A stretch of 64,000 nucleotides of DNA from Minisyncoccota bacterium (GTDB taxonomy: Bacteria; Patescibacteriota; Minisyncoccia; Phycocordibacterales; CALRHW01): positions 389,164 through 453,163 of the forward strand of contig JAXLZT010000001.1 of NCBI GenBank assembly GCA_046350795.1, read 5' to 3'. Made by a program: the position numbers and the translations under genes. The notes under the pieces were generated by a model. The model was not told the origin of the DNA. It worked only from the letters and a program-made list of their open reading frames with translations, and made no database searches. Shown here piece after piece: positions 1-60,253 of this stretch (positions within the stretch are counted from its first letter, which is position 1; each line of letters starts with the position of its first letter).

Positions 1-474
1 ATGACGATAGCTGACCTTGGCGCTGGTTCTGGTGCATATTGTGAGCCAGTAGCTATTGCTGTGGGCGACAAAGGCAAAGTATACGCTGTAGATGTACAAA
101 AAGATCTTTTGGCCAAGATAAAAAATGATGCCAACAAAAATCACATTTTAAATATAGAAGTGATTTGGGGTGATATAGAAAAAGTGGGTGGCACAAAGCT
201 ACGTGATGGCTGTGTCGACGGTGTCATAGCTAGCAACATACTTTTTCAGCTCACAAATAAAGAAGGTTTTCGTGCTGAAGTCAGGAGAATACTAAAGCCG
301 GGCGGTAGACTTTTTGTGATTGATTGGACCGACTCTTTTGGAGGACTTGGTCCACAGGGGGCATCTGTTTTTTCAGCTTCTTCATGTAAGAATTTTTTTC
401 AGACCGACTTTAATATTGAAAAAGAGTTTAATGCGGGTGCGCATCATTACGGGATAATTTTCAAAAAAAAATAA
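1..474 (+). CDS. SAM-dependent methyltransferase, class I (5' end truncated by window edge)
   Basis: Motif I-like DLGAGSGAY and the acidic loop VYAVDV near the N-terminus. The ORF begins at base 1. Confidence 0.55.
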   Translation: MTIADLGAGSGAYCEPVAIAVGDKGKVYAVDVQKDLLAKIKNDANKNHILNIEVIWGDIEKVGGTKLRDGCVDGVIASNILFQLTNKEGFRAEVRRILKPGGRLFVIDWTDSFGGLGPQGASVFSASSCKNFFQTDFNIEKEFNAGAHHYGIIFKKK

Positions 475-475
475 T

Positions 476-1777
476 ATGAAAGAAATGAGCAAATTTCAGT
501 TGATATTTATGGGAATTTTTGCAATTTTTATATTTGTTGGCGTGGCCATTTTTGCTCTAGGTAAATTTGGTAATAATCAGACTACTTCTACTGTGGTTGT
601 GTGGGGTTTTTTACCAATGAGTAAATGGAATGAGCTTGCCTCTGGACCAACACTAAGGGGAAATAAGCTTATTAAATTTGAGTATGTTCAAAAGACGGAA
701 GCGGGTTTTGATCAGGATTTGATAGAAGCACTCGCTTCTGGAAAAGGTCCGGATATTTTCTTTTTGACTCAGGATTCTATTTTAAAACATAAGGACAAGA
801 TACTACCGATACCATACAAGACGCTTTCAGAGCGGGATTTTAAAGATGTTTTCGTGCAAGAGGGTGAGCTTTATTTATCAAAAGATGGTGTGCTTGGTTT
901 GCCATTTACTATTGATCCAATGGTGATGTATTGGAATAGAACTATTTTTTCAAATGCAGGGCTTGCTGTGCCACCAAAATATTGGAGTGATTTTTACAAT
1001 CTATCTCAGGTGCTTACTATTAAAGACGGTTCTTTAAACATAAATCAAAGTACTGTAGCTTTGGGTGAATATGCAAATGTGTCACACGCTACAGAGCTTA
1101 TGGGTTTGCTTGTGATGCAAGCTGGTGGAGCAGTGTCTCAAAAAATAGATAATCAAGTAGAGAGCACTCTTTCAAATGATTTTAATGCGCCTATTGCACC
1201 AGCAGTTTCAGCCCTCTCTTTCTTTACTGAATTTGTAAATCCTCTTAAACCTTTTTATTCTTGGAATCGTTCTCTGCCAACATCTAAAAATCATTTTATC
1301 TTTGGAGATCTAGCCGTGTATTTTGGATATGCTTCTGAAGTAGAAGATATTCAAAATAAAAATCCAAATCTTAATTTTGATGTAGCAAAAATTCCTCAAT
1401 CCAAAGATGCTAGTGAGATTATCACTTTTGGAAAAATAAATGGCTTGGCTGTATCAAAAGCTTCCAAAAATCCTAGCGCAGCCATACAAGCCGCATTACT
1501 TTTGGTAAGTAAATCAGTGCTAAGTGAGCTTGGCGTTCTCACAAATCTGCCACCAGTACGCAAAGACATGCTCGCTGTGCGCCCGAGTGATACTTATATG
1601 TCTATATTTTACGATGGCGCAATACAATCTCGTGGTTGGCTTTCTCCTGACAAAAAAGAAGCCGATAAAATTTTTAAAGAAATGATAGAGTCTGTGACTG
1701 GCAACAGACGCACAGTGTCTGATTCTGTAAATCGTGCAGACTCGGAGCTTCAGATTTTATTTAAAAAAATGAAATAA
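476..1777 (+). CDS. N-terminally membrane-anchored extracellular protein, possibly solute-binding-protein-like
   Basis: Single N-terminal TM helix followed by a 400-aa hydrophilic domain. It starts 2 nt after the upstream stop codon. Product assignment is weak. Confidence 0.4.
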   Translation: MKEMSKFQLIFMGIFAIFIFVGVAIFALGKFGNNQTTSTVVVWGFLPMSKWNELASGPTLRGNKLIKFEYVQKTEAGFDQDLIEALASGKGPDIFFLTQDSILKHKDKILPIPYKTLSERDFKDVFVQEGELYLSKDGVLGLPFTIDPMVMYWNRTIFSNAGLAVPPKYWSDFYNLSQVLTIKDGSLNINQSTVALGEYANVSHATELMGLLVMQAGGAVSQKIDNQVESTLSNDFNAPIAPAVSALSFFTEFVNPLKPFYSWNRSLPTSKNHFIFGDLAVYFGYASEVEDIQNKNPNLNFDVAKIPQSKDASEIITFGKINGLAVSKASKNPSAAIQAALLLVSKSVLSELGVLTNLPPVRKDMLAVRPSDTYMSIFYDGAIQSRGWLSPDKKEADKIFKEMIESVTGNRRTVSDSVNRADSELQILFKKMK

Positions 1778-1778
1778 A

Positions 1779-2201
1779 ATGAAATCATCAATTAAAGTTT
1801 TATTAGCGAGTTTTTGTATGGTGCTGATTTTTTCTGCTAGCTTTGCACCGGTTTTTGTGCAGGCAAAAATACTTAGAGGTATCATTCCTTGTGGCAATTC
1901 ATCAAGTGGTGCCACCCCAGGTCAGATAAAAGCAGAAGAATGCAACTTTGGTGATCTACTTGCCCTGGGTCAAAATATTATAAAGACATTAGTTCTTTTA
2001 TCTATACCTATTACGGCTATAGTTTTTTGCTGGGCAGGATTTTTGTATCTATCTTCGGGTGGTGATACAAGTAAAATAAAACAAGCTAAAGAGATTTTTT
2101 GGAAAGTAATGTGGGGATTTATATTCATTCTGACAGCTTGGCTCATAGTATATGCTGCCACATCGCTTTTGGCGCCCGGTTTTAGTTTCTTATTGAAATA
2201 A
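1779..2201 (+). CDS. small membrane protein with C-terminal two-TM module (member 1 of paralogous array; VirB2/TrbC-pilin-like?)
   Basis: Signal peptide. The C-terminus (AIVFCWAGFLY...GG.TS..KQAKEIFWKVMWGFIFILTAW) aligns with the FFWG...WG..LFVMFS.WG family of the next genes. Confidence 0.5.
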   Translation: MKSSIKVLLASFCMVLIFSASFAPVFVQAKILRGIIPCGNSSSGATPGQIKAEECNFGDLLALGQNIIKTLVLLSIPITAIVFCWAGFLYLSSGGDTSKIKQAKEIFWKVMWGFIFILTAWLIVYAATSLLAPGFSFLLK

Positions 2202-2215
2202 TATATAATAAAAAC

Positions 2216-2713
2216 ATGAAATTTTTATTCACAGCACTTTTTACTCTAGCACTATCATCGTTTTTTGTTTTTACTGCGCACGCTCAAATGCTTCCAGAGC
2301 CGATGGATGCTGGTGGAGGTTATAGTGCTGGTGACACATCATTTCCTGGTCCAAATGGCCAGGGCACATCATTTCCTGGTCCAAATGGTCAAGGTTCCTC
2401 TTTTCCAAACCCATTTGGAAATACCAGTAACACAAACAGTCTTTCTGGTTTTGTACAGTTTGCTCTTGAAAAAATAGTTTTGCCTATCGGTGCAGTTGTT
2501 GTCGTGTTTTTTGTAATATACTCCGGATATCTTTTTGTGACGGCAAACGGTAGCGAAGACAAGCTTGAAAAAGCAAAGCACACATTTCTCGGTGTCGTGA
2601 TTGGCGCAGCAATACTTTTAGGATCTTGGACTATAGCTAGTGCAATAAAAGGTACTCTGTGTGAGATTGCGCCAAGTATTCCGGGTTTGTGTGGTGGTAG
2701 CAATAATCTTTAA
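2216..2713 (+). CDS. small membrane protein with SFPGPNGQG repeats plus C-terminal two-TM module (array member 2)
   Basis: Signal peptide. Three tandem 12-aa Gly/Pro repeats are encoded by a 36-bp direct repeat at about 2336-2410. The C-terminal two-TM module is homologous to the neighbouring genes. Confidence 0.5.
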   Translation: MKFLFTALFTLALSSFFVFTAHAQMLPEPMDAGGGYSAGDTSFPGPNGQGTSFPGPNGQGSSFPNPFGNTSNTNSLSGFVQFALEKIVLPIGAVVVVFFVIYSGYLFVTANGSEDKLEKAKHTFLGVVIGAAILLGSWTIASAIKGTLCEIAPSIPGLCGGSNNL

Positions 2714-2724
2714 TAAAAAAATTC

Positions 2725-3024
2725 ATGTGTCCATCCACCCCCAAAACATTTAAAGACGTCATCTGCATCTTTTTGGATTTGTTTAGTTTGATTATCCCGC
2801 TTTTGGCCGGACTGGCTCTTTTGGCTTTCTTTTGGGGTTTAGCAAAATTTATTTACAACGCTGGTAGTGAGTCTGCTCGAGAAGATGCAAAAAATGTAAT
2901 GTTCTGGGGAATTATTGGTCTATTTGTGATGTTTTCTATTTGGGGTATCGTCTCTTTCTTTACCCAAGACTTCTTTGGTGTAAGTTTTACTGGTCTACCA
3001 AGGTTGCCAGTTTTCCAAAATTAA
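2725..3024 (+). CDS. small two-TM protein, FFWG..WG family (array member 3)
   Basis: LLAFFWGLAKF...AREDAKNVMFWGIIGLFVMFSIWG. This is one of six near-collinear paralogs. Confidence 0.55.
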   Translation: MCPSTPKTFKDVICIFLDLFSLIIPLLAGLALLAFFWGLAKFIYNAGSESAREDAKNVMFWGIIGLFVMFSIWGIVSFFTQDFFGVSFTGLPRLPVFQN

Positions 3025-3028
3025 TGTC

Positions 3029-3361
3029 ATGAAGTATTTTTTAGTAATCTTTTCTTTGCTCTTACCGATTTTTGCACACGCTGCTGTTTCAAATGCGCGT
3101 GATCTCATACTAGCCGTCACTTCTTTGATTACTTTGGGTACTCCGATAGTCGCCGGTATTGCCCTCGCTGTTTTCTTCTGGGGTCTTGCTAGATTTATGT
3201 ATCATTCTGACAGCGAGGATTCAAAAGAAGAGGGGAAAAGAATAATGTTTTGGGGGATTATAGCTCTTTTTGTAATGTTTTCTGTGTGGGGTCTGGTCAC
3301 TTTTGTGGCTTCGGGCTTGGGAGTAGACGCCCATCCTGCAAACATGCTTTACGAGTTTTAG
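3029..3361 (+). CDS. small two-TM protein, FFWG..WG family (array member 4)
   Basis: Signal peptide followed by AVFFWGLARF...SKEEGKRIMFWGIIALFVMFSVWG. Confidence 0.55.
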   Translation: MKYFLVIFSLLLPIFAHAAVSNARDLILAVTSLITLGTPIVAGIALAVFFWGLARFMYHSDSEDSKEEGKRIMFWGIIALFVMFSVWGLVTFVASGLGVDAHPANMLYEF

Positions 3362-3454
3362 AGCTATTCACAACAAGCATTGTTTTTGTCTAGCCTTGTA
3401 GTATGATTATTGTATAGTTTTTGGATAATTATTAGTTAAGTAATTTTAAGAAAG

Positions 3455-3802
3455 ATGAAAAAAGTTATATTAGGAGGTGCAATGTTTTTTCTTCCCGCAT
3501 TTGTGTTTGCTGCAGAAGCCCTAAACAATGTTTACGGTATTATTCAGTCTATAGGTCAGATAGTGAGTGCTGTGATTCCAATAGTTTTTGCTCTTATCTT
3601 GGTTTATTTCTTTTGGGGTCTTGCAAGATTTGTCCTCAACTCAGGTGATGAAGACGCTAGAAAAGCGGGCCGTGGAATGATGATCTGGGGTATCGTAGCT
3701 CTTTTCGTAGCTGCTTCTGTGTGGGGTCTTACTGAGTTTATCGGAAAAGCACTTGGTATAAATGATGTTCAGGGTGTTCAGGTTCCTGGTATCTACAACT
3801 AG
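3455..3802 (+). CDS. small two-TM protein, FFWG..WG family (array member 5)
   Basis: Signal peptide followed by VYFFWGLARF...ARKAGRGMMIWGIVALFVAASVWG. There is a promoter-like AT-rich spacer upstream (3362-3454). Confidence 0.55.
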   Translation: MKKVILGGAMFFLPAFVFAAEALNNVYGIIQSIGQIVSAVIPIVFALILVYFFWGLARFVLNSGDEDARKAGRGMMIWGIVALFVAASVWGLTEFIGKALGINDVQGVQVPGIYN

Positions 3803-3814
3803 TAGTTACAATAA

Positions 3815-4078
3815 GTGATGACTATCAATACGCTTCTCAATAAGATTATTTCTGTAATACTCCAACCCATTGTTGTTTTGATGTTTGTGGTGGCTTTGAT
3901 GGTATTTTTCTGGGGAATTGTCCAGTTTATAAACACATCAAACACAGACGACGGTAGGGAAAAGGGGAAAAGAAATATCTTGTGGGGGGTTGTTGGAATG
4001 TTCATAATGTTTTCTGTGTACGGAATCATTCACATCATTTTACAGACGTTTGGCATTCCATCTCCATCGTATCTTTAA
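3815..4078 (+). CDS. small two-TM protein, FFWG..WG family (array member 6)
   Basis: MVFFWGIVQF...GREKGKRNILWGVVGMFIMFSVYG. Confidence 0.55.
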   Translation: MMTINTLLNKIISVILQPIVVLMFVVALMVFFWGIVQFINTSNTDDGREKGKRNILWGVVGMFIMFSVYGIIHIILQTFGIPSPSYL

Positions 4079-4115: not shown

Positions 4116-4133
4116 TGTAAATAAGCGTGTCTT

Positions 4134-4174
4134 TTATAAAAGAAAGAAGCGGTAGACCACGTGGGTCCACCGCT
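4134..4174 (-). terminator. GC-clamp hairpin with TCTTTCTTTTAT tail (island-style terminator)
   Basis: AGCGGT...ACCGCT stem with inner GACC/GGTC pairing. On the minus strand it is followed by tctttcttttata. Confidence 0.4.
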
Positions 4175-4193
4175 CCGGATGAGATTGTTCAGC

Positions 4194-4904
4194 TCATCGC
4201 TGTTGTTCGGTCAGGTCACAGATTGCGGTGTACTGAAACACCTTGTTTCCGGACGTCGACGCTGGTCTTGACCGGAAAGCCATTACTGGCCCCGTCAGTT
4301 TCTCTCTTCCGAGATCAATCTGTCGCCCAGGCAGGTGTTTGGCTTTCACCACTCCACCATCGGCTTGCTGGAGCTCTAGGTCGAGCTCCTTGTCTGAAAG
4401 AATGGTTACTTTCTTGACGTTTGATGGCAGGTTTTGCCAATCCGACCACACCCCCGGCTCAGATGTGATCAGCAGGTTTGTCGAGCCAGCAACACTTGTT
4501 GCGATCACTTTCGGCGTTGAAGCCCTTACCACCAGACCGATCACACCAGAAATGGCCACAACAAAAGACGGTACCAAGATGATCAGGATCCACACGATCT
4601 TGAGGATCTTGCCCCAGGACCACTTGCGCGGGTCTGGACGAATCCAGAAGAGGGTGGCGATGAGCAGGATCACTCCACCAATCCATGCCAGGACCGGCCA
4701 CATGGAAGACCAGATGGCATAGAAGTCCGGTGGAGTGACGCTCTTTGAGACGATGCCGACGATGATAAACGTCGCCAGCAGACTGATCATTGTCAAAGCA
4801 TTCTTGGAGAATGCTTGAGTTTTGATCCACTTGGTAGCGACCTTCCTGTTTCGCCAACCAAGAACGACTCGATTGGTCACGTTTTTTCTCAGCCAATTCT
4901 TCAT
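4194..4904 (-). CDS. GC-rich membrane protein (three N-terminal TM helices plus a roughly 110-aa soluble C-terminal domain); possible NfeD-like partner of the adjacent SPFH protein
   Basis: Perfect SD (AAGGAGGTGAA) 2 nt ahead of the ATG at 4904. The composition is GC-rich. The product assignment is inferred only from its adjacency to the SPFH gene. Confidence 0.45.
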   Translation of the reverse strand: MKNWLRKNVTNRVVLGWRNRKVATKWIKTQAFSKNALTMISLLATFIIVGIVSKSVTPPDFYAIWSSMWPVLAWIGGVILLIATLFWIRPDPRKWSWGKILKIVWILIILVPSFVVAISGVIGLVVRASTPKVIATSVAGSTNLLITSEPGVWSDWQNLPSNVKKVTILSDKELDLELQQADGGVVKAKHLPGRQIDLGREKLTGPVMAFRSRPASTSGNKVFQYTAICDLTEQQR

Positions 4905-5039
4905 GGTTCACCTCCTTGGTGAATATGATTTTGTAGGTTTACCCGGAAGTTTACAAGGAACAATTCCTTATGTCCACTGCTTTAATACTAGCACAATTTT
5001 ACTTAAAAGTCAAGCATCTCAAATATGAAAATAATCGTC

Positions 5040-5084
5040 TTTTTAAATGAAAGGGCCGCGCAGCTCTGAAGAATTGCGCGGCCC
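5040..5084 (-). terminator. GC-clamp hairpin terminator downstream of SPFH gene
   Basis: GGGCCGCGCA...TGCGCGGCCC stem followed on the minus strand by TTTCATTTAAAAAG. Confidence 0.5.
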
Positions 5085-5115
5085 GTATTGATTCACACAC
5101 ATCACCTTGCGGTGA

Positions 5116-6300
5116 TTACTTGCCGTCGTTGGAAAGAGGCAATGTCACCCCAGGTACTTGACCAAGGACCAGTGTTCCCTTGACTTGGGAGTACTTGTCT
5201 GCCATGTACATGGCAGCTCCAGCACCATTGCCGGCGGTAGCAATCGCACCATAGCCCTCAGCTTGCGCTTTGAGCATGGCTTCTTCACCCTTTGCCTTGG
5301 CGACCAGATTGGCCTCCTCAACATTGGCCTTGGCTTTACCCTCGGCTTCAATGCCGGGAGCAGCAGCCAACTTCATCTCAGCTTCTTGACGTGCCCGCTG
5401 GATTTCCAGCTGGCCTGCGATGTACTCAGGTGGGGCTTCGATGGCCACAAGTTTGATCTCGACGATCTCTTGTCCCACCGTTTCCATGATACCGGGGTAT
5501 TCTTTGTCCCCGATCACCACCTTTTCGTTGACTGCCATGAGCGCTTGGATGAGTTCTGAGTTAGCCTCAATCCTTCCACCAGACGTTGTCAAACCCTTGA
5601 TGATTGTCTCAAAGGTTCGTCCTTCCTTGCCTGCGTACTGAAGCAGACCAGAAAAGATTGCCACCTTGACCCTGTTGATCCAGTCGCCCGGATTTGATGA
5701 GGTGCCAAAGAGTGTCTTGTGGACGTTTCTCGTTCTCAGCTGTACTGAGAGACGAAACTTCAGCTTGTTCTGTTTGCTGTCTTCCACTCCATCGATCTCC
5801 ATTCCGTACTGGTATGTACAAAAATGGAGTTGGATTTCCTCGGGTTCATGTGGGACGATCTTGTCGCCATCCACTTTTTCCCAAGCAAATTTCCACCTCA
5901 ATGGCTTGAAAATCGGATACCATCCGATCCACTCATAACCGTAGAGGCGGTGGATGAAGCTTCTTTCAAAGTCTCCTGGGAGTACTTCTCCACTGCCACT
6001 TGGACAGAGATGCTCACCCTTTTTCCAGTGAAACATCTTGTGCACGGTGCCACCATGCATGACCACCGCGTCGCAGTTTTCCTGCGCTTTGATGAAGAAT
6101 TTGGTGCCTCCATCAACCTTCGGATCGGCGAGCCGAGCGATGATGACACCGCACACCCACCAAGCCAGAAAGGTCAGACCACCCACCATGGCAATGATGC
6201 CGAGTGTGATGAACGCTGACACCGGTCCAAAGACCAGCCATGACAGGACGAATCCTGCCACGAGGGAGAACCAGAAAGACCAGCTCTTGAGAAAATTCAT
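5116..6300 (-). CDS. SPFH/band-7 (flotillin/YqiK-like) membrane protein, GC-rich
   Basis: Two N-terminal TM helices. The C-terminal region is rich in E/A/K/Q repeats (QLEIQRARQEAEMKLAA...AEGKAKANVEEANLVAKAKGEEAMLKAQAEGY), typical of flotillin-like proteins. SD AAAGGGGTG. Confidence 0.55.
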   Translation of the reverse strand: MNFLKSWSFWFSLVAGFVLSWLVFGPVSAFITLGIIAMVGGLTFLAWWVCGVIIARLADPKVDGGTKFFIKAQENCDAVVMHGGTVHKMFHWKKGEHLCPSGSGEVLPGDFERSFIHRLYGYEWIGWYPIFKPLRWKFAWEKVDGDKIVPHEPEEIQLHFCTYQYGMEIDGVEDSKQNKLKFRLSVQLRTRNVHKTLFGTSSNPGDWINRVKVAIFSGLLQYAGKEGRTFETIIKGLTTSGGRIEANSELIQALMAVNEKVVIGDKEYPGIMETVGQEIVEIKLVAIEAPPEYIAGQLEIQRARQEAEMKLAAAPGIEAEGKAKANVEEANLVAKAKGEEAMLKAQAEGYGAIATAGNGAGAAMYMADKYSQVKGTLVLGQVPGVTLPLSNDGK

Positions 6301-6358
6301 TGCGCACCCCTTTCAAAAGGTGTTAGTTGTTTATCTACCCAGAGGTCAATATCGTGAA

Positions 6359-6375
6359 AGTGGCAACGTGCCACT
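6359..6375. promoter_or_regulatory. perfect palindrome AGTGGCA-ACG-TGCCACT in the 5'UTR of the SPFH gene
   Basis: 7-bp inverted arms lying between a TTGACT/TATACT-like promoter (about 6405-6435, minus strand) and the SD. Confidence 0.3.
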
Positions 6376-6456
6376 TGTGTGTGATTACAAAAAACTCCAC
6401 CCTGATTAGTATAACAAAATACTACAAAAGTCAAGATTAGATAATCTCCACAAAAG

Positions 6457-6541
6457 TGGTGGGCGAGGGGAGAGTCGAACTCCCATGGATTACTCCACTA
6501 GTTCCTAAGACTAGCGCGGCTACCAATTACGCCACTCGCCC
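6457..6541 (-). tRNA. tRNA-Leu (anticodon TAG)
   Basis: Hand-folded cloverleaf. Acceptor GGGCGAG/CTCGCCC, anticodon loop CTTAGGA, long variable arm, T-arm GGGAG-TTCGACT-CTCCC. Confidence 0.8.
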
Positions 6542-6593
6542 AAATTTTTAAAAAATACCTATTGTCGGTCACTGCTTTCTTCGCACAACCGAG

Positions 6594-6666
6594 TCCGCCC
6601 ACCAGGATTCGAACCTGGGACCCACCGCTTAAGAGGCGGTTGCTCTACCAACTGAGCTATGGACGG
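6594..6666 (-). tRNA. tRNA-Lys (anticodon CTT)
   Basis: 73-nt cloverleaf. Acceptor CCGTCCA/TGGGCGG, D-arm GCTC-AGTTGGTA-GAGC, anticodon loop CTCTTAA, T-arm CCAGG-TTCGAAT-CCTGG. Confidence 0.8.
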
Positions 6667-6763
6667 TTATTAAACCTTGGTTTCAAACTACCAAAACAGC
6701 TATGGACGGTTATTAAACCTTGGTTTCAAACTACCAAAACAGCTATGGACGGTTATTAAAAGT
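6658..6763. repeat. 2.4 tandem copies of a 43-bp unit that begins inside the 5' end of tRNA-Lys
   Basis: The unit gctatggacggttattaaaccttggtttcaaactaccaaaaca repeats with exact 43-bp period (tatggacggt at 6658, 6701 and 6744). Confidence 0.85.
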
Positions 6764-6785
6764 ACATTTTATTTAATACCGTATC

Positions 6786-6834
6786 CTACATAAAAGAATA
6801 GAGCCGGGCAAGAACAAGTCGTGCCACAGGCTCT
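6786..6834 (-). terminator. GC-clamp hairpin with ATTCTTTTATG tail
   Basis: AGAGCCGGGCA...TGCCACAGGCTCT stem, downstream of the 83-aa membrane-protein gene. Confidence 0.4.
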
Positions 6835-6865
6835 GGGGTGGGGAGATGGCGACTGTGATGGTGGC

Positions 6866-7117
6866 TCATCCGTGAGCGGTCTGACGCATCAGAAACGCGT
6901 GGTGCTTCTTGGCCAGTATCTCTGACACAACCAGAATGTTCACCGCTGCAATCGTGACGGTCACCAACATGCAAAGCATCGCTGGGAAGATCGGCCAGTA
7001 GAGGAAGTCCTTGGTGGTCTGGTGCTGGTACATGAAGTACACAGCCATGACCGCAACCACCAGGCCGATCAAGTCCGTCAGTATGAGCCACCTGATCTGG
7101 CGGCGCAACTTTTTCAT
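6866..7117 (-). CDS. small GC-rich two-TM membrane protein (83 aa)
   Basis: Two hydrophobic helices. SD AAAGGAA precedes the ATG at 7117. Preferred over the overlapping 128-aa ORF 6786..7172. Confidence 0.45.
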   Translation of the reverse strand: MKKLRRQIRWLILTDLIGLVVAVMAVYFMYQHQTTKDFLYWPIFPAMLCMLVTVTIAAVNILVVSEILAKKHHAFLMRQTAHG

Positions 7118-7261
7118 GCCATTGTTCCTTTTCAGCTAGTGTTTGTCGCATCTCCACGACCGGAACTGTCATTTTTTACGATTATGACAGCACCCACATT
7201 ATCTAGTTTTTTTTGATAAAAGTCAATAAAAGTAATACACATATATCGGATTCTTGTATTG

Positions 7262-7309
7262 GTTGAAAAATAAAATCCGCCGGACACCACGAACGTGGGC
7301 CGGCGGATT
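7262..7309 (-). terminator. hairpin AATCCGCCGG...CCGGCGGATT with T-rich tail on minus strand
   Basis: 10-bp GC-rich stem followed on the minus strand by TTTATTTTTC. Confidence 0.4.
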
Positions 7310-7342
7310 GGCGGAGGTGCGAGTTGGTTTGCAGGGATCGGG

Positions 7343-7678
7343 TCAAACACAAATGACCAAAGTCCTGTTGACGTGAAGTCTGATGTCTGTGATGAGCTCG
7401 TGGTCATCACTGCCGACGAGCGCTTGGATGATCTGCGACAGCTTGTTGAGGATCAGCCCTCGAATCGAGCTTGGCACCTCGGAGATTGCCAAGGTGATCA
7501 TCAAAGCCACCCCCTCCGGAGAGAATTCGTCCCCAGCCTTCTTGAGGAGAAGGTGATTGAATCCTTTCAGGTTTAGGTTGTCGATCGAAAACAGCCGATC
7601 ACACAGCTGGTTGTGTGGTGGGAGGACGATCACCTTCGTCTCACGGCCACACCGATCATTGTTCTCACTTGTCCGCAT
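7343..7678 (-). CDS. GC-rich hypothetical protein (111 aa)
   Basis: ORF with SD-like GAGAGG and its own terminator. A palindromic operator-like site lies upstream. No recognisable domain. Confidence 0.4.
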   Translation of the reverse strand: MRTSENNDRCGRETKVIVLPPHNQLCDRLFSIDNLNLKGFNHLLLKKAGDEFSPEGVALMITLAISEVPSSIRGLILNKLSQIIQALVGSDDHELITDIRLHVNRTLVICV

Positions 7679-7712
7679 CTGCTAGCCTCTCAATGTGCAA
7701 ATTTACCACGAT

Positions 7713-7733
7713 CCTTGTGGTAAAGGGTCGACG
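7713..7733. promoter_or_regulatory. perfect palindrome TTACCAC-GATCCTT-GTGGTAA upstream of the 111-aa gene
   Basis: 7-bp inverted arms located 35-55 nt upstream of the start codon at 7678. Confidence 0.3.
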
Positions 7734-7932
7734 CTCACCTGAGCGCAGACAAGAAAGAAATATATCACGATAAATAGAGTGGGTCAAATAAGAGGGGTGT
7801 GAGTATCTTTTGTTCAAGTTATACTTTGTGTTTTTTTATCCACCACTTTTTTATAGCAGGTAGATATTGTATAGAAATAAAAAATCCTCTTGAGGTTTTT
7901 TAATTTTTTCTTCCATGTTTAAATCCTAAATG

Positions 7933-8016
7933 TGCCCAGGGCGGGAGTCGAACCCACAAGAGCTTTCGCCCACAACATTTTAAGTGTTGCGCGTATACCA
8001 ATTCCGCCACCTAGGC
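7933..8016 (-). tRNA. tRNA-Leu (anticodon TAA)
   Basis: Cloverleaf with acceptor GCCTAGG/CCTGGGC, anticodon loop CTTAAAA, long variable arm, T-arm GTGGG-TTCGACT-CCCGC. Confidence 0.8.
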
Positions 8017-8487
8017 ATTTTTTCTATTTCTTCCACGATGAGTTGTTTTTAGACTATGGCAATTTGGACAAAGAATTCTTAGGTTTTCTAATCTGTTGTC
8101 GTTATGTTTACCATTAATATGATCCAACTCTAGAGGTAATCTACCATCTTCTGACCATTTTGCCCACCCGCATTCTTCACACATAGCTTTCATTAAACCA
8201 TCTCTTAGTAACCTTTTTTTAAGTTTAAAACTCTGATAGGTGCTATTTTTAATAAGGATTTTTTCAATAGGGATTATTGGTTTGCCAATGCCAATCAGTC
8301 CTTTATTCCAGCTTTTTCCTTTAAAATGGTCAATGGGTATTTTGTATAACTCAATGAACTTCTTTATTTGAGAATAATTGCCACCCGCAGGAATAAGCTT
8401 AAGTTTTTTAATGACTTGTCGTGTACTCGTAGAAGAAAGACAGGCCTCTAATAGTTGGGCCTTTGTCCAAGATTTTTTTCTCTCCAT
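8011..8487 (-). CDS. HNH endonuclease
   Basis: C-terminal HNH motif LELDHINGKHNDNRLENLRILCPNCHSLKT. The start was moved to the internal Met (MERKK) because the longer ORF runs through tRNA-Cys. The stop codon overlaps the 5' end of tRNA-Leu(TAA). Confidence 0.6.
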   Translation of the reverse strand: MERKKSWTKAQLLEACLSSTSTRQVIKKLKLIPAGGNYSQIKKFIELYKIPIDHFKGKSWNKGLIGIGKPIIPIEKILIKNSTYQSFKLKKRLLRDGLMKAMCEECGWAKWSEDGRLPLELDHINGKHNDNRLENLRILCPNCHSLKTTHRGRNRKNA

Positions 8488-8547
8488 ATAAAAAAGTATA
8501 CCTACCTGAGATAATGGAAATCTAAAGAAGTTATAGAGAAACACTAG

Positions 8548-8621
8548 AGGCGTAGGTCGGGGTTGAACCGACGTATAGCAGTTTTGCAGACTGCCGCGTT
8601 TACCAACTTCGCCACTACGCC
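8548..8621 (-). tRNA. tRNA-Cys (anticodon GCA)
   Basis: 74-nt cloverleaf. Acceptor GGCGTAG/CTACGCC, anticodon loop CTGCAAA, T-arm GTCGG-TTCAACC-CCGAC. Confidence 0.8.
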
Positions 8622-8993: not shown

Positions 8994-10544
8994 CTATATT
9001 TGTTTTTCTACGATACGCACAGACTCGATGCGATCTCCGGGAGCGAGCTCAATTTTTGATTCTATCATCGCACCAAATTCTGCACCTTCGGGTACTTCAC
9101 TCACTTTTTCTTTTTGTTTTTGTAAACCGCGGATTTTACCTGTACCTATTTCTGCTTCACGGCGTAATATTTTTACTTGTGCTCCAACGGACACACTTCC
9201 GGATTCTACTTTTCCACCTACAACTTGTTTATCTTTTTCTATACTAAATATTTTCAATATTTTTGCTTTACCGGTAGATTCTTCGACAGAGACGTGCGGT
9301 TTGCGCTCCTCTAGGAGGAGCTCTAGTGACTCAAGTAGTTTGTAAATGATATCGAAAAGTTGAATTTTGATACCTGAGCGTTCGGCTAGGCTAACTGCGC
9401 GCGGATCTGCTTTGCAGTGGAAGCCAACAACAACAGAAGACGGATTGCCCAAAGCTAGCTTGATATCACTTTCTGATATTGCACCGATTCCATTTTGAAT
9501 AACAGAAAATTCTACTTGATCATTTTTGAGCAACTCTATTTTATGCATTATTGCTTCTAGACTACCGCCCTTATCGGCTTTGAGTATGAGGGGAATAATG
9601 ACTGGGCCGTTTTCGGAGTTTTTTCTGTTTTTGTTTGAGCTTTTTTGTGCTTTTTGAATAGCGTTTTTTTCTTTTAAATTTTGCACGTAGCTTTCTGCTT
9701 CTTTTCGTGTTCCAAAAGTTTTAAAAGAAGCACCGACAGGTGGAAGTGTATCCCAGCCGATAATACATATTGGACTAGAAAAAGTAGCTTCTCTTATATT
9801 TTTACCTAAAAAGTTTTCCATGATACGAACAGGGGATATACTTTCACCCGCAACCACAAACATACCTTGTGATACTGTGCCTGTGCGTATGATGAGTGTG
9901 GCAGCAATGCCTTTTTTTGCATCTAGGTGGCTCTCTAGTACGATACCTTCGCCCGTTACATCACTTTCTCCTGTGAGATCTGCTAGATCTGCGACCAATA
10001 TCATCATATCGAGCAATTCATCGATACCTTCTCCTGTTTTTGCTGAAATGGGTACTGCTGGAATATCACCACCATATCCTTCTATGAAAATTTCATTTTC
10101 AGCGAGACTTTGTTTTGTGCGGTCTATGTTGGCGTCTGGTAAATCTATTTTATTTATAGCAACGATGTAAGGAATTTTTGCTTCAAGGATGCATTTTAGT
10201 GCATCGAGTGTTTGTGGCTTTACTCCATCGCCAGCTGATACCACAAGTATGGCAATGTCGGCTATCTGTACACCACGCATACGGAGTGCCTGAAAAGCTT
10301 CGTGACCAGGAGTATCTAGAAAAGTGATTTTGTGTTCTTTGCCGTCTGGGGCTTTGTGTACGACTTCGTATGCAGATACATGCTGTGTGATACCACCTGC
10401 TTCTCCAGCGATGACGTTTGTTTTTCGAATGTAGTCTAGTAGGCTAGATTTACCATGATCAATATGACCCATCACGGCAATGACGGGGGCTCTAGGTGTT
10501 TTAGAGTCGGTTTTTATGGGTTTTGTGGTGGTTTTGCTCAACAT
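8994..10544 (-). CDS. infB: translation initiation factor IF-2 (short form)
   Basis: G domain GHIDHGKSSLLD, DTPGHEAF, NKID, followed by beta-barrel domains. Confidence 0.9.
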   Translation of the reverse strand: MLSKTTTKPIKTDSKTPRAPVIAVMGHIDHGKSSLLDYIRKTNVIAGEAGGITQHVSAYEVVHKAPDGKEHKITFLDTPGHEAFQALRMRGVQIADIAILVVSAGDGVKPQTLDALKCILEAKIPYIVAINKIDLPDANIDRTKQSLAENEIFIEGYGGDIPAVPISAKTGEGIDELLDMMILVADLADLTGESDVTGEGIVLESHLDAKKGIAATLIIRTGTVSQGMFVVAGESISPVRIMENFLGKNIREATFSSPICIIGWDTLPPVGASFKTFGTRKEAESYVQNLKEKNAIQKAQKSSNKNRKNSENGPVIIPLILKADKGGSLEAIMHKIELLKNDQVEFSVIQNGIGAISESDIKLALGNPSSVVVGFHCKADPRAVSLAERSGIKIQLFDIIYKLLESLELLLEERKPHVSVEESTGKAKILKIFSIEKDKQVVGGKVESGSVSVGAQVKILRREAEIGTGKIRGLQKQKEKVSEVPEGAEFGAMIESKIELAPGDRIESVRIVEKQI

Positions 10545-18997: not shown

Positions 18998-19645
18998 ATG
19001 ACTCTTCAACAAATCTTTGCCATGTCCTCGGCGGTTCTCATGGTCATTGGTTCGGTGTGGCAGGTGTATGTGGCGATTCGTTATCCAAAGAAGGTCAGAC
19101 CAACTCTCGCGAGCTGGATCATCTTCTCCACCACTTTGACGTTGTCGTTTGTCACGTACTGGACCACCAAGGAACGAAACCTGGTGTCCAACGCAGCAAA
19201 CGCATCGGCAATGGTGGGTGCGCTCATTGTGTTTCTCGGAGCGCTGGCGATGCACATTCGAAGTGGTAACAAGTTGGCGTTCTCGCGCTTCCAGAAGGGA
19301 AGTCTGACATGCGCCAGCTTGATCGCTCTCGTGTGGGTCGTGATGGTTTGGGGTTTGGGATATAGCGGCCTTGTGCCAAACATCCTTACCCAAGTACTCA
19401 TGATCATTGGTTATTGCGTCACGGCCGACAAGGTGTGGCGTGCGACGAGCACTTCGGAGTCCTTCTTCTTGTGGTGGTGCATTTTCGCCTCTAGTATGCT
19501 GGGACTTGTCCCAGCGTGCGCGAGACTCGACGCTCTTGCGATCTTGTATGCCACCAGAGCCACTGTCTGTACCGGTCTTCTCCTGATCCTTCTGTATCGG
19601 ATCAAGAGTCGGTCGTCGCAGGCAAGTCTGGTCACCGTGGTTTGA
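18998..19645 (+). CDS. GC-rich 6-TM membrane protein (215 aa), paralog of 45634..46194
   Basis: Hydrophobic multi-TM profile. Shares the ASWI...GAL(I/L)V...SES(F/W)(F/W)LW motifs with the island protein at 45.6 kb. The antisense ORF 18950..19654 was rejected. Confidence 0.5.
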   Translation: MTLQQIFAMSSAVLMVIGSVWQVYVAIRYPKKVRPTLASWIIFSTTLTLSFVTYWTTKERNLVSNAANASAMVGALIVFLGALAMHIRSGNKLAFSRFQKGSLTCASLIALVWVVMVWGLGYSGLVPNILTQVLMIIGYCVTADKVWRATSTSESFFLWWCIFASSMLGLVPACARLDALAILYATRATVCTGLLLILLYRIKSRSSQASLVTVV

Positions 19646-23649: not shown

Positions 23650-24375
23650 TCACTTGGCGATAGCCAGGGTCAGATCTGGGTGCGGCTCATAGCCCAAAGG
23701 CGTTGGAGCATCATCACGTAGTCCGCAGACCACGGATATGAGCTGTACGGCATTGTCCCGGCCCACCTTGACTGTGCTACTTGGTGCCGGCGTGTACCCC
23801 TCCCCGAGCTCAAAGCCGACCGCTTTGATGAGCTCGATGTACGGCACCCCAAGCGTGTCATCTTCAGCACCACAGTTGGGCGAGAAGTCTTCGATCAACT
23901 GTGGAAACACCAGAGTGTCTAGGATTTGCTCCATTTTGGCAAAGAACGCAAGGCTGAGCAGGCCAATCCTCGATCCACAGCAACTTGGCTTGTGCGAGAA
24001 CATGTCATCGACTCGTCGACTGTATCCATCGATGAGTGCTGCATAGTGGCGATCGAAGATGCCGTTGCCACCAGATATATTCCAATAGCCAAGGAGATGA
24101 TCAATGCTTTTTGTGTGTCCTGTTCGGTCAATGTACCGTTGCATGATCTCACGCGCTTCTGGATGGCGTAGGTGCTTTGCCGTCTTATCCATCCAGACCT
24201 GATGCTTGCCTCTCATGAACAGGGCTCGGTGGATACCGGCCACCCTTTTGAGACCCAGAACCTTCTCTTCTCCGTAGCAACGAAGTGCAGACTCGATCGC
24301 CCGGCTGAACTTGGGGCTCATTTCTCCCAGTAGTGCTCGTGCCTCCACTTGCCCAGCTTCTTCTTGCGTCATCAT
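23650..24375 (-). CDS. GC-rich soluble hypothetical protein (241 aa)
   Basis: Long ORF with SD GAAAGG. No recognisable motif. Confidence 0.5.
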   Translation of the reverse strand: MMTQEEAGQVEARALLGEMSPKFSRAIESALRCYGEEKVLGLKRVAGIHRALFMRGKHQVWMDKTAKHLRHPEAREIMQRYIDRTGHTKSIDHLLGYWNISGGNGIFDRHYAALIDGYSRRVDDMFSHKPSCCGSRIGLLSLAFFAKMEQILDTLVFPQLIEDFSPNCGAEDDTLGVPYIELIKAVGFELGEGYTPAPSSTVKVGRDNAVQLISVVCGLRDDAPTPLGYEPHPDLTLAIAK

Positions 24376-26508: not shown

Positions 26509-26916
26509 CTAGGTCATGCGATCTTCTTCGCCTTCTCTGGAGAAATGGAGATCGCTGGGAATCATGCCCCTTCTGATCACGTCCACCCAGTCAATGAACT
26601 CCTCTGTTCCGGCATACTTGCCGTTGACGTGCCTTTTCACGATGATGCCATTTCTTTCTGATCTGACGAAGCACCAGTTGGTGGGAAACGGAGCATCTCT
26701 TCGTGGTTCGACGATCACAGAGTCTCTTGTCGCGGTCTCAAAGAGACGCACGACCGCCTCTATGTCTCGATCATGCTTGTGGTCCGGAAGATTCGGGGGC
26801 TGGTCATCTGTGACCTTTGCCCGCTTTTCCCTTTTCTGCACAAAAAAGGTGATGAGTACCACGATTGCAGTCATCAGTGTGCCTGCACTCACGATGACGA
26901 TTTGTTCCTTGTGCAT
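26509..26916 (-). CDS. GC-rich small membrane-anchored protein (about 135 aa from the internal Met)
   Basis: SD AGGAGAA precedes the ATG at 26916. One TM helix (LMTAIVVLITFFV). Palindrome AGAGCA-CAA-TGCTCT at 26956-26970 and a TTGACT promoter at about 27004. Confidence 0.4.
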   Translation of the reverse strand: MHKEQIVIVSAGTLMTAIVVLITFFVQKREKRAKVTDDQPPNLPDHKHDRDIEAVVRLFETATRDSVIVEPRRDAPFPTNWCFVRSERNGIIVKRHVNGKYAGTEEFIDWVDVIRRGMIPSDLHFSREGEEDRMT

Positions 26917-27050
26917 ATGCTTCTCCTGATGAGTTGGTGTTGTGTACTTGTTTTTAGAGCACAATGCTCTTCCTAAACTATTTTTATAATAGATTTATAT
27001 ATAAGTCAAGTATTTTATACGCATTCAAATAATGCTAATCTTAGAAATAC

Positions 27051-29469: not shown

Positions 29470-30237
29470 ATGAAAGCATGGACTCAAGTCCCCGCTGGCG
29501 ACATCAATGCCGCCAATCAACGTCTGTGGGGAGCGATCGGCGACAACGCCGAAGAGGTCGCAGCCCGCATCAACACCGACCCTGCGTTCGTGGCGAACAT
29601 CGCACGACTCATGGTCAATGGCGGTTACGAGCCGTCAACGTCACAGAAGCTCGCCCGCGAGATCATGGGCAAGAACTTCTTCGGTATCGAGGAGGCGATC
29701 AAACACTTCGGGGTTAATCCCACGAAGCAACAGCTCGCTTGCTTGGCTGAAGTTCCGTGGAGCGAGGAAGTGCTGAAGTCATGCAAGGACACGCACGTTC
29801 TCGTCGCCGTCTTTCCGCTGTCGATCCTCGACATCCGTGGACACGCCCGAAAGCAGTCCGACCGGACCCTGTTTTACTCACAGGACTGGTATGACAAGCA
29901 GGCCTTCGCCAAGGACAAGGGCGAAGTCGGCTGGCAGTTGGTCCGCAAGGAACCGATCGCCAACTCGACCTCGAAGATGTGGAACGATCAACAGGCACTC
30001 CTCTCGAAAGACGAGGAAACTCCGACTGCTCGGATCGTGGTTTACACCATGGTCGGCCACCTCCTCGCTACTGGAGAGCGTCTGTTCGAGAAGATCTACG
30101 TTCGTTGCGTCGATCTCGACTCGGACGGTGACCGCGTCAGCGTCCGCGGCTTCGATGCCGGGGGTCTCGTCGTCTACGGCTGGTGCGGCGGCGACCGCGA
30201 TTTCAGCATCGGCTTGTCGGCTGCCAGGAAGCAGTGA
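29470..30237 (+). CDS. very GC-rich hypothetical protein (255 aa)
   Basis: Long ORF in a stretch of about 60% GC. The alternative-frame ORFs are GC-content artefacts. No recognisable motif. Confidence 0.5.
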   Translation: MKAWTQVPAGDINAANQRLWGAIGDNAEEVAARINTDPAFVANIARLMVNGGYEPSTSQKLAREIMGKNFFGIEEAIKHFGVNPTKQQLACLAEVPWSEEVLKSCKDTHVLVAVFPLSILDIRGHARKQSDRTLFYSQDWYDKQAFAKDKGEVGWQLVRKEPIANSTSKMWNDQQALLSKDEETPTARIVVYTMVGHLLATGERLFEKIYVRCVDLDSDGDRVSVRGFDAGGLVVYGWCGGDRDFSIGLSAARKQ

Positions 30238-45633: not shown

Positions 45634-46194
45634 TTATCTGAGAACCAGCACTGTCATCGTGGTGTTCAGGACGAAGCATCCGCATGGGATGAGACGCTCC
45701 TCGATTGTCCACTTCTTTGCTCCATAGCAGGAAAGGACGCAAGAGAAAGCGACACCAGCCCATAGCCACCAACTCTCTGAGTTCGGTTTCAGCCACGCAT
45801 CATACATGGCTGGAAACGCAGCGATCGTCATGGCGGTCATGCAAGCGACGATTGCCAACTTGGGGCCAGATCTCCACCAGCAGATCACCGCGACTGCCAT
45901 CCCGATGGCAGAGATCATTTCCACCAGACCCCAATGCCACGTTCCTTTCCCGAGAAGGATGATCGTGACGAGGAGAGCTCCGAGTGTGAACCCAGCAGGA
46001 AGCCAGGGTCGCTTGTTGCCGGCTGCAACGCAGCCAACAAGGATCAGGGCATCAAGCACTGTCCACATGATCCAGCTCGCTGTATTCTGGGGTAAGTCGT
46101 GTACCATCAGATAGACAGCGAAGGCGACGATCACGATCGTCGAGATCAATCCTCCAATCAGACCGATTCTCTTTTTCAAGAGTTCGTTTTGCAT
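45634..46194 (-). CDS. GC-rich 6-TM membrane protein (186 aa), paralog of 18998..19645
   Basis: Shares the ASWI, GAL(L/I)V and SESWWLW motifs with the 215-aa island protein. SD GAAAGG. Inverted repeat GGCCGCAT...ATGCGGCC upstream at 46244-46286. Confidence 0.5.
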   Translation of the reverse strand: MQNELLKKRIGLIGGLISTIVIVAFAVYLMVHDLPQNTASWIMWTVLDALILVGCVAAGNKRPWLPAGFTLGALLVTIILLGKGTWHWGLVEMISAIGMAVAVICWWRSGPKLAIVACMTAMTIAAFPAMYDAWLKPNSESWWLWAGVAFSCVLSCYGAKKWTIEERLIPCGCFVLNTTMTVLVLR

Positions 46195-52255: not shown

Positions 52256-52759
52256 ATGACGAAGACGTCATTAAAGTTTCGTGTCCGAACTCACGGGATT
52301 GTGGTTGATGTTCGACAAGACAGCAAGTGGGTCAATGCAATTTCTGTGATGGCCGTCATGCGTCCCGGCTCTTTTGATGTGAGCCGGGTAGGCGGACTCT
52401 ATCCTCCCGTTGGTAATGGGATGATCAAGAAGAGCCTCACTCTGCTGAATTTCCCAGAAGGTGACGGTGGTTTGGACAGTGCTGTTGTTTGGGCCAAGGA
52501 TAATGGCCTGAAAACAGTCGAACCACGTTCACTTTTTGCCATCAAGACGGCACACCCCGGACTTCACAAGAAGATCGGTCAGGGTGGGGTAGTTCTCGTG
52601 GAGACTGTCGGATGTACGCTGAATCATACTGGCTTCCCTGACAAACGCCATCTGTGTTGCGTTGTCTTGGGGGACGGTGTGCCCGCTGTCGGACTGTTTC
52701 CGGTCAACCAATTCAACGGCTTTGGTAGCCACGACACCTGGTTTGTGTTTAGTGACTAG
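52256..52759 (+). CDS. GC-rich hypothetical protein (167 aa)
   Basis: ORF flanked by its own consensus promoter and terminator. No recognisable motif. Confidence 0.5.
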   Translation: MTKTSLKFRVRTHGIVVDVRQDSKWVNAISVMAVMRPGSFDVSRVGGLYPPVGNGMIKKSLTLLNFPEGDGGLDSAVVWAKDNGLKTVEPRSLFAIKTAHPGLHKKIGQGGVVLVETVGCTLNHTGFPDKRHLCCVVLGDGVPAVGLFPVNQFNGFGSHDTWFVFSD

Positions 52760-55967: not shown

Positions 55968-56018
55968 GTTGGAGACGTTCTTAATGTTCGACCAATGTCC
56001 ATCAACTCAGGAGGTGTC

Positions 56019-57045: not shown

Positions 57046-57090
57046 ACCACCGAACTGCGCGCACGCGTACTCGGTGGTATTTTAATTATA
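57046..57090 (+). terminator. hairpin ACCACCGA...TCGGTGGT followed by ATTTTAATTAT
   Basis: Ends the GC-rich noncoding stretch 56590-57090. Convergent with the typA stop codon. Confidence 0.4.
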
Positions 57091-60173: not shown

Positions 60174-60253
60174 GGTCTGTACCTCCATCACTAGGGGTTG
60201 GAAAGAGCACGACTCGACGCTGGAACTTCTTCTACCCGGAACTACCTTGGGAT

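Follow-up and report, generated by a model that had tools for sequence, protein, structure and literature searches.

The window considered here is a stretch of 64,000 nucleotides from the genome of a Candidatus Paceibacterota bacterium, a member of the candidate phyla radiation (CPR; contig JAXLZT010000001.1, positions 389,164 to 453,163). Between positions 4101 and 7800 it contains a patch with a GC content of 0.49-0.52, against about 0.37 on either side. This patch carries four GC-rich genes around tRNA-Leu(TAG) and tRNA-Lys(CTT), among them a gene of 394 amino acids (aa) for a divergent SPFH/Band-7 protein and a 236-aa gene for a membrane protein that we refer to as its partner. The original prediction for this DNA had described the patch as one composite island at tRNA genes, and its GC values and open reading frame (ORF) coordinates were reproduced. 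Its origin appears to be another matter. We find that the SPFH gene and its partner (the SPFH pair) are ancestral at the locus and predate the divergence of the sampled Paceibacteria, and we consider it probable that the locus is not a single integrated island but a patchwork, in which an old, fast-evolving and exchanged SPFH pair has been joined by separate later insertions. The genes on which the argument turns are as follows.

1779-4078, plus strand: six small genes for proteins resembling type IV secretion system (T4SS) pilins (Pfam T4SS_pilin, 2.3e-8 and 3.4e-10 for the last two)
4194-4904, minus strand: ORF for the 236-aa partner membrane protein, with a positively charged N-terminus, three transmembrane (TM) helices and an all-beta C-terminal domain of about 100 aa predicted to face outward
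5116-6300, minus strand: ORF for the 394-aa divergent SPFH/Band-7 protein, assigned by the family profile and by the Band_7 matches of its relatives
6866-7117, minus strand: ORF for an 83-aa predicted two-TM protein, with a GC content at third codon positions (GC3) of 0.80, a promoter and a weak terminator
7343-7678, minus strand: ORF in the spacer between tRNA-Leu(TAA) and tRNA-Lys, for a 111-aa soluble protein of unassigned family

Using IF-2 as an anchor we collected 80 GTDB species-representative loci. Of these, 36 have 6 kb or more of flank, and in 19 of the 36 a hidden Markov model (HMM) of the family detected an SPFH gene downstream of IF-2. In at least four further loci missed by the HMM the slot is occupied, as judged by eye, by TM-plus-SPFH-like and TM-plus-beta proteins. 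The partner and a convergent pilin cluster follow the SPFH gene in 27 of the 29 lineages with enough sequence. The common order is IF-2, RbfA, tRNAs, SPFH, TM partner, convergent pilins, solute-binding protein (SBP), methyltransferase and GyrA, and it is found in L001, L002-5, L006, L007/8, L011/12, L013 and L014 (L-numbers denote the related loci or lineages compared with the window). The contigs sharing this order encode SPFH relatives that are 79%, 46-49% and about 20-30% identical to that of the window. On the L009 and L010 contigs MurJ replaces the rbfA side, yet the SPFH pair still adjoins the pilins.

The pilin cluster of the window is convergent with the SPFH pair and lies outside the GC-rich island, and five to eight pilin-like genes are found convergently downstream of the pair in nearly all lineages. 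They are conserved across the class as a tandem block of six paralogues after SBP, an S-adenosylmethionine (SAM) methyltransferase and GyrA (window 1-4078; L001, L005, L009, L011, L013, L014). Individual paralogues diverge quickly, with 56-90% identity among lineages in which RbfA is 95-97% identical. In Agrobacterium the T4SS has been reported to associate with SPFH/flotillin membrane microdomains (PMC8656257). The present locus resembles that case in the conserved neighbourhood of an SPFH gene and a cluster of T4SS-pilin paralogues, and differs from it in that the association is known here from gene adjacency alone, in uncultured CPR bacteria.

Integration of the SPFH pair at the tRNAs, as originally proposed, is contradicted by the relatives, which keep the pair at the same locus in each lineage examined. 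Reading the pair as an insert also fails on composition, which is host-like in some relatives (GC3 of 0.33 in L013 and 0.35 in L009). The original prediction had itself held that relatives carrying the same genes at this locus with host-like composition would speak against an insertion. Since relatives carry the pair at the same place, some with host-like GC, this is largely what was found for the main pair.

The SPFH protein and its membrane partner

Taken alone, the 394-aa protein matches Pfam Band_7 with an E value of 0.021 and 15.3 bits, below the 23.6-bit cutoff, and searches of the PDB with the single sequence and with a four-sequence profile gave non-significant results in which HflC was only grazed. 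A word-indexed search of 5.8 billion proteins returned four relatives only, besides the identical protein of the source, which is named U0522_02200 there and lies on a 562-kb contig; when 1.84 billion cluster representatives were searched exhaustively with a profile, 163 were obtained at E<=1e-3. Band_7 is matched by 32 of 73 aligned relatives (best 1.9e-16), and a 73-member profile found Pyrococcus (PH) stomatin (5.6e-13), HflK (2.9e-12) and QmcA (1.3e-10) in the PDB, as well as HflC, prohibitin and flotillin. The matches to stomatin, HflK and QmcA span positions 139-366 of the family profile. Judged by these profile comparisons the 394-aa protein is a member, and a very divergent one, of the SPFH superfamily, and a low-confidence AlphaFold2 (AF2) model of it has the three-dimensional SPFH fold. 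The earlier description of a flotillin-like SPFH protein is borne out for SPFH through the family profile and does not hold for flotillin specifically, the nearest structures being stomatin, HflK/C and QmcA.

The protein consists of an N-terminal hydrophobic hairpin (residues ~7-58, with helices 7-24 and 26-58), an SPFH alpha/beta core (~130-290) and an Ala/Glu/Lys-rich helical C-terminus (~291-371, with helices 291-313, 317-356 and 360-371). It shares with stomatin, QmcA (YbbK) and HflK-HflC (PF01145, Band_7) the N-terminal anchor, the SPFH core and the long Ala/Glu-rich helical C-terminus, and the SPFH domain probably lies in the cytoplasm behind the hydrophobic hairpin. Unlike known SPFH proteins it has an insert-rich region of about 70 residues between anchor and core. 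This region includes the motif RLYGYEWIGWYP..KPLRW.F.WEK (residues ~118-142), which is invariant in the four closest relatives, sits between the membrane anchor and the SPFH core and has an AF2 confidence (pLDDT) of 23-35. To our knowledge the RLYGYEWIGWYP...RW.F.WEK motif has not been reported for known SPFH proteins. Two further features set the subfamily apart from stomatin, QmcA and HflKC: it is seen only in Paceibacteria-type contexts, and it outpaces its flanks in divergence and is usually GC3-enriched.

The 236-aa partner was modelled with AF2 on a three-sequence alignment. In the model, three long hydrophobic helices lead into a beta domain of seven strands (pLDDT 66-84 in this domain) which, in this low-confidence model, resembles a jelly-roll sandwich rather than an OB fold. 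The first 37 residues include ten Lys or Arg, and another five surround the second loop, a distribution that by the positive-inside rule would place the beta domain outside the cell; we regard its extracellular position as tentative. A word-indexed search with the partner gave near-identical copies only, and jackhmmer did not extend past the four closest lineages. Across lineages the proteins in the partner position are 153-398 aa long with one to five TM helices. In about 30 lineages the SPFH gene and its partner are same-strand neighbours, often abutting or overlapping; in the window the promoter of the 236-aa gene and the terminator of the SPFH gene lie between them.

4146-4176, minus strand: terminator of the 236-aa gene, a 13-bp stem followed by a T-run (-23.7 kcal/mol, z -5.4)
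4985-5013, minus strand: sigma-70-like promoter of the 236-aa gene, TTGACT-17-TAGTAT, TG-extended
5053-5084, minus strand: terminator of the SPFH gene, an inverted repeat followed by UUUCAUUU (region -33.9 kcal/mol, z -4.8)

The 236-aa gene also has a strong Shine-Dalgarno sequence, AAGGAGGTGA, directly upstream of its ATG. Because the terminator at 5053-5084 separates the SPFH gene from the 236-aa gene, the pair forms two transcription units in the window genome.

The original prediction had called the partner NfeD-like. On that view the two genes would form a canonical SPFH-NfeD pair of the kind known from QmcA-YbbJ or YuaG-YuaF, with the 236-aa protein as a short NfeD that has diverged to an extreme degree and whose C-terminal OB fold binds the SPFH ring from the same membrane side. 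In short NfeD proteins three hydrophobic stretches are joined through a short hydrophilic linker to a soluble all-beta domain (PMC2636767), a layout that the modelled partner shares. Like the SPFH-NfeD operons QmcA-YbbJ, YuaG/FloT-YuaF and PH1511-PH1510, the locus joins an SPFH gene to a small membrane protein of about three TM helices and an all-beta domain (PMC2636767). The adjacency kept in about 30 lineages, with many abutting or overlapping ORF pairs, suggests an operon, and NfeD proteins are known for poor conservation (YuaF is 21% identical to PH0471; PMC2636767). The sequence signal of NfeD, however, was not recovered at any level searched: the window partner does not match Pfam NfeD (PF01957) at E<=1, no PDB chain of NfeD is reached by a four-orthologue partner profile at E<=10, and NfeD is absent among the families listed (25 of 48) for 34 positional partners of other lineages. 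The predicted seven-strand sandwich would also differ from the five-strand OB barrel of NfeD. By the positive-inside rule the beta domain would lie outside the cell and the SPFH domain probably in the cytoplasm, so that the partner domain, unlike that of NfeD, is probably on the opposite side of the membrane. In further contrast to SPFH-NfeD operons, partner length and TM number vary widely between lineages, and a promoter and a terminator divide the two genes into separate transcription units in the window genome. What stands of the NfeD-like call is the layout of three TM helices and an all-beta domain. We do not file the partner as NfeD; the weak structural model leaves room for such an identity, which we judge unlikely.

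Divergence and composition of the pair

Between the window and L002/3 the C-terminus of IF-2 is 94% identical, RbfA 97% and the pilins 70-87%, against 47% for the SPFH protein and 29% for the partner. The SPFH proteins of the window and L001 are 79% identical, though among the four lineages L001 stands furthest away by each flank gene. The 111-aa protein groups in the opposite manner, with 76% identity to L003 and 52% to L001. These opposite groupings of the SPFH protein, the 111-aa protein and the flanks form a mosaic and point to exchange of alleles at the locus.

Within the island GC3 is 0.63 for the 236-aa gene, 0.60 for the 394-aa gene, 0.80 for the 83-aa gene and 0.69 for the 111-aa gene, as compared with 0.21-0.47 in adjacent host genes. 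AAG makes up 0.67 of Lys codons in the island and 0.23 in host genes, ATC makes up 0.76 and 0.21 of Ile codons respectively, and CTG and CTC predominate among the Leu codons of the island. Since the intergenic spacers within the island are GC-richer than host spacers too, the effect is regional rather than codon-level, and we rejected codon-level selection as the main cause of the high GC3; the low GC3 of large, RNA-polymerase-sized genes was also counted against it. The adjacent tRNA-Lys(CTT) and tRNA-Leu(TAG) were rejected as the main cause because the ancestral tRNA cluster is also found beside an AT-rich pair (L013), and an assembly chimera was rejected because independent assemblies have the same arrangement.

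Averaged over 29 lineages, GC3 rises from 0.37 in host genes to 0.48 in the SPFH gene and 0.55 in the partner. Partner GC3 exceeds that of the host in 26 of the 29 (Wilcoxon p ~1e-5), and GC3 is correlated between SPFH gene and partner (r 0.93) far more than between host and SPFH gene (r 0.37); these lineages are not phylogenetically independent and the statistics are indicative only. In L091, the sole GC-rich host (GC3 0.73), the pair is GC-poorer, at 0.52. This pattern argues against a single ancient transfer still unadjusted to its host and fits recurrent replacement or recombination at the locus. An SPFH gene with a membrane partner is in itself an arrangement of a known kind; what is unusual here is the combination of fast change, discordant phylogeny and decoupled GC3.

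The window holds, in addition, about ten single-gene GC3-rich islets (GC3 0.51-0.76) among AT-rich housekeeping genes.

18998-19645, 23650-24375, 26509-26964, 29470-30237 and 45634-46194: GC3-rich islets
46551-47468, 52256-52759, 55995-56513, 56801-57085 and 59929-60276: GC3-rich islets, the first of this row encoding a sigma-70-family factor

The sigma-70-family factor at 46551-47468 is the only islet with a Pfam match, and no paralogy was found among the islets. Together, island and islets differ from host genes in AAG (0.67-0.76 against 0.23), in ATC (about 0.7 against 0.21) and in Trp (2.4-3% against 0.5%). The genome appears to have two compositional classes of gene and, since the other islets have the same codon bias, the GC-rich island is not unique in the window.

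The tRNA spacers and the smaller genes

The tRNA genes beside the SPFH pair, the signals of the two small genes and an HNH endonuclease gene are arranged as follows; the tRNAs were called concordantly by ARAGORN and Rfam.

6457-6541, minus strand: tRNA-Leu(TAG), ancestral cluster
6593-6666, minus strand: tRNA-Lys(CTT), ancestral cluster
6655-6760: perfect 43-bp tandem repeat, 2.5 copies (TRF score 212, 100% matches)
7198-7226, minus strand: promoter of the 83-aa gene, TTGACT-17-GATAAT
7279-7308, minus strand: terminator of the 111-aa gene, a hairpin followed by UUUUAUUUUU (z -3.2)
7702-7750, minus strand: two-hairpin leader of the 111-aa gene, conserved in the window, L003 (~1180-1235) and L001 (~9135-9190)
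7759-7787, minus strand: promoter of the 111-aa gene, TTGACC-17-TATATT, with the -35 kept in L001 and L003
7932-8016, minus strand: tRNA-Leu(TAA), ancestral cluster
8011-8487, minus strand: free-standing HNH endonuclease gene of host-like low GC (Pfam HNH 3.3e-6, PHROG HNH 7.9e-41)
8547-8621, minus strand: tRNA-Cys(GCA), ancestral cluster, next to rbfA

The set Cys(GCA)-Leu(TAA)-Lys(CTT)-Leu(TAG) lies between rbfA and the SPFH gene in all 28 of 28 lineages. In L013, L068, L072 and L080 neighbouring tRNAs of the set are separated by 3-68 bp. The spacer between tRNA-Leu(TAA) and tRNA-Lys measures 16-99 bp in L011, L013, L025, L054, L062, L068, L072 and L080 and 389-2613 bp in about a dozen other lineages, with 1265 bp in the window. 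Its content varies: L003 has an unrelated 159-aa gene, L007 a 135-aa gene, and L079, L091 and L094 have what, judged from sequence alone, are apparent racemase genes. The Cys-Leu(TAA) spacer is 3-61 bp in most relatives. In the window it holds the HNH gene, whose presence between the two tRNAs, as first described, is confirmed by Pfam and PHROG. A longer HNH ORF overlaps tRNA-Cys, so the true start is likely the Met at 8487. Homologues occur in the same spacer in L091 (12111-12524) and L094 (11961-12488) and after rbfA in L059 (12201-12698), and the HNH gene looks like a homing-type mobile gene that targets the Cys-Leu(TAA) spacer. We conclude that the tRNA-cluster spacers are recurrent insertion slots, partly for free-standing genes of homing-endonuclease type. 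The proposal that this tRNA locus is an insertion hotspot is sound for the 111-aa, 83-aa and HNH genes, whose spacers are short in relatives, and fails for the SPFH pair; empty-site polymorphism was found only for the small genes in the tRNA spacers.

In the spacers on either side of tRNA-Lys we also noted candidate LAGLIDADG-like ORFs, judged by eye, in L011 (6957-7685), L040 (12030-12797) and L024 (11588-12232); these share a YWAEG(T/S)K motif and what looks like an HTH region at the N-terminus. The tRNA-Lys alone is inverted in L011, L024, L025, L053 and L061, and the tRNA cluster is wholly or partly inverted in L032, L043 and L083, which points to recurrent local inversions at the cluster.

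Through the 43-bp repeat the real tRNA-Lys(CTT) gene is preceded by two pseudo 5' halves of itself, each including 6 nt of upstream sequence. The tRNA-Lys genes of L001, L003 and L007 lack such a repeat upstream, and the duplication is therefore recent; slippage may account for it, or it may be the scar of a recombination.

Sigma-70-like promoters of the form TTGAC(T/C)-17-TAnnnT are found upstream of the 236-, 83- and 111-aa genes, and the four island genes look like four separate transcription units in the window genome. The earlier statement that each gene has its own terminator is well founded for the 236-, 394- and 111-aa genes and less so for the 83-aa gene, whose 3' hairpin is weaker than the other three terminators (z -0.9). 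The 83-aa ORF has no homologue in related loci and is overlapped by a 128-aa ORF in another frame; we infer that it is coding from its GC3, ribosome-binding site, promoter and terminator.

The 111-aa protein occupies the same spacer in the window, in L003 (1253-1588) and in L001 (the copy of about 52% identity). It has no match in Pfam, PHROG, NCBIfam, PADLOC or phages, and jackhmmer did not extend past the three closest lineages. Its leader is more conserved than its coding region. A palindrome, TTACCAC-N7-GTGGTAA, lies at 7703-7723; since this is downstream of the -10 of the promoter, it falls within the transcribed leader. No second copy of the palindrome was found in the window, and we rejected a repeated operator on the ground that it is unique there. 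Among the three sequences, hairpin 1 (7727-7750) has four pairs that changed on both sides with pairing kept, and hairpin 2 (7702-7724, the palindrome) is the same in all three but for a single A>G change, which produces a G.U pair. No Rfam family matches the leader. The palindromic operator of the original prediction is thus a real palindrome; the covariation, drawn from only three sequences, is suggestive of an RNA element, which we consider at least as likely as a DNA operator, and the leader may be an undescribed cis-regulatory RNA.

Origin of the locus and what it means

Compositional islands beside tRNA genes are routinely scored as horizontally acquired, and the explanation first proposed, one composite island in which an integrative element at tRNA-Leu/tRNA-Lys imported all four GC-rich genes, rests on the atypical GC and codon usage, the location at tRNA genes, the pseudo-copies of the tRNA-Lys 5' end at 6655-6760 and the tRNA-spacer content that varies across lineages. 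We regard it as very improbable. The pair sits at the same position in each related lineage examined, even where protein identity is as low as about 20%, and in some cases with host-like GC, and the tRNA-Lys repeat is a genome-specific perfect tandem duplication that brackets no gene. Neither an integrase nor a recombinase, which the original prediction had suggested looking for, lies within 10 kb on either side (window ORFs and the Pfam annotation of the syntenic L001), where the ORFs encode pilins, SBP, methyltransferase, HNH, RbfA, IF-2, DUF4446, a trypsin-like protease and ClpB; no flanking att-type direct repeats were found in the window. Further searches for relatives were equally unproductive: the SPFH and 111-aa proteins had no tblastn match among phages, blastn of the island against plasmids gave tRNA matches only, a narrow-alignment search of GTDB species representatives and IMG/VR gave nothing, and when the four proteins were compared with Pfam, PHROG, NCBIfam and PADLOC the matches were all sub-threshold or generic TM ones. 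The locus resembles tRNA-associated islands in its atypical composition beside tRNA genes and in spacer gene content that varies among lineages. It differs from them in that no integrase or att repeats were found, in that its main genes are ancestral at the site, in that insertions lie between intact tRNA genes rather than at a tRNA 3' end, and in that several inserted genes are free-standing and of homing-endonuclease type (HNH, and LAGLIDADG-like ones so called from sequence alone).

A more serious alternative, which we nevertheless hold to be somewhat unlikely, is that the GC-rich genes are cargo of a mobile pool (an unsampled CPR phage, a plasmid or GC-richer Paceibacteria) swapped into fixed slots by homologous recombination in the flanks, with no GC enrichment in situ. 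It would account for the distinctive codon usage common to the island and about ten islets, for a pair composition decoupled from the host, including the GC-poorer pair (0.52) in the GC-rich host L091 (GC3 0.73), for the discordant phylogenies and for the GC-richer spacers of the island. Its difficulty is that no donor or vehicle was found, the homologues all being in the same chromosomal context and the phage, plasmid and IMG/VR collections yielding nothing; moreover, the mean GC3 of the pair (0.48-0.55) exceeds the host mean (0.37), so that random exchange among these hosts alone is insufficient. It is also conceivable, with a rather small chance in our estimation, that the pair serves in anti-phage defence or surface variation, as a module under arms-race turnover in which the SPFH protein would serve as a sensor of membrane damage or as an effector scaffold. 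Extreme divergence and allele replacement at a fixed locus are typical of such loci, the partner domain is predicted to be extracellular, and homing endonucleases and variable cassettes lie nearby. This is offset by the lack of a PADLOC match for the SPFH, partner and 111-aa proteins (the 83-aa ORF has weak generic two-TM matches) and of a nuclease, ATPase or other recognisable effector domain, and by a pair that is universal rather than patchy, which is unusual for defence systems.

The patchwork account, which we prefer, has points against it as well. Both AF2 models are of low confidence (pLDDT 48 and 58), which makes the fold of the partner's beta domain and the topology of either protein tentative. 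A functional link to the pilins depends on conserved adjacency within a generally syntenic block and on one rearrangement that keeps them together (L009/10). Because the lineages are not independent, the p-values for GC3 overstate their support. The pair has host-like GC3 in L009, L013, L061, L062, L068 and L080, and the GC-enriching process is therefore not universal. An excess of +0.3 in GC3 is larger than is usually credited to GC-biased gene conversion in bacteria, and no GC-rich donor was found among the homologues, all of which come from Paceibacteria-like contexts.

In the patchwork account the core of the locus would be an old pair, a scaffold of the stomatin/HflKC/QmcA type and a multi-TM partner, set between a four-tRNA cluster and convergent pilins. 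Solved SPFH assemblies (HflK/C, QmcA-YbbJ, stomatin, prohibitin and flotillin) are membrane-attached rings or cages and, by analogy, the SPFH protein would most likely oligomerise into a ring or cage at the cytoplasmic side of the membrane, where it would corral or stabilise membrane clients. The partner would be the prime candidate client and the neighbouring pilin subunits a secondary one. The pair would evolve exceptionally fast and be exchanged between lineages, and its GC richness would be a by-product of recurrent recombination or replacement, whether through import of GC-richer alleles, GC-biased gene conversion or both. The 111-aa, 83-aa and HNH genes would be later, separate and lineage-specific insertions into recurrent spacer slots, and each gene would be transcribed as its own unit in the window genome. 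A predicted exposed, fast-evolving beta sandwich beside fast-evolving pilins suggests selection at the cell surface, by host contact or phage.

A bolder form of this account is speculative and, in our view, rather doubtful. It would have a hypervariable two-gene cassette beside the pilins throughout the class, an SPFH cage and an extracellular beta-sandwich protein, swapped until its composition became decoupled from that of its host, with the roughly ten orphan islets, the sigma factor included, belonging to the same 'second compartment' of recombination-driven, GC-enriched genes for surface and host interaction. If true, the locus would rank as an unusually strong bacterial case of GC enrichment associated with recombination.

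Several implications follow for the CPR bacteria. Island predictors would mislabel the ancestral SPFH pair as horizontally acquired in CPR genomes. The analysis defines a CPR-specific and very divergent SPFH subfamily with a partner that is not detectably NfeD and with a conserved neighbourhood of T4SS-type pilins. The joint occurrence of fast evolution, discordance and raised GC3 makes the pair a candidate system for the study of recombination-linked GC enrichment, or of a hidden mobile gene pool, in reduced genomes. The SPFH pair beside the pilins provides a concrete hypothesis on membrane organisation in bacteria that depend on contact with the surface of a host cell and, were the hypervariable cassette real, it would point to genes that mediate the episymbiotic lifestyle of CPR bacteria.

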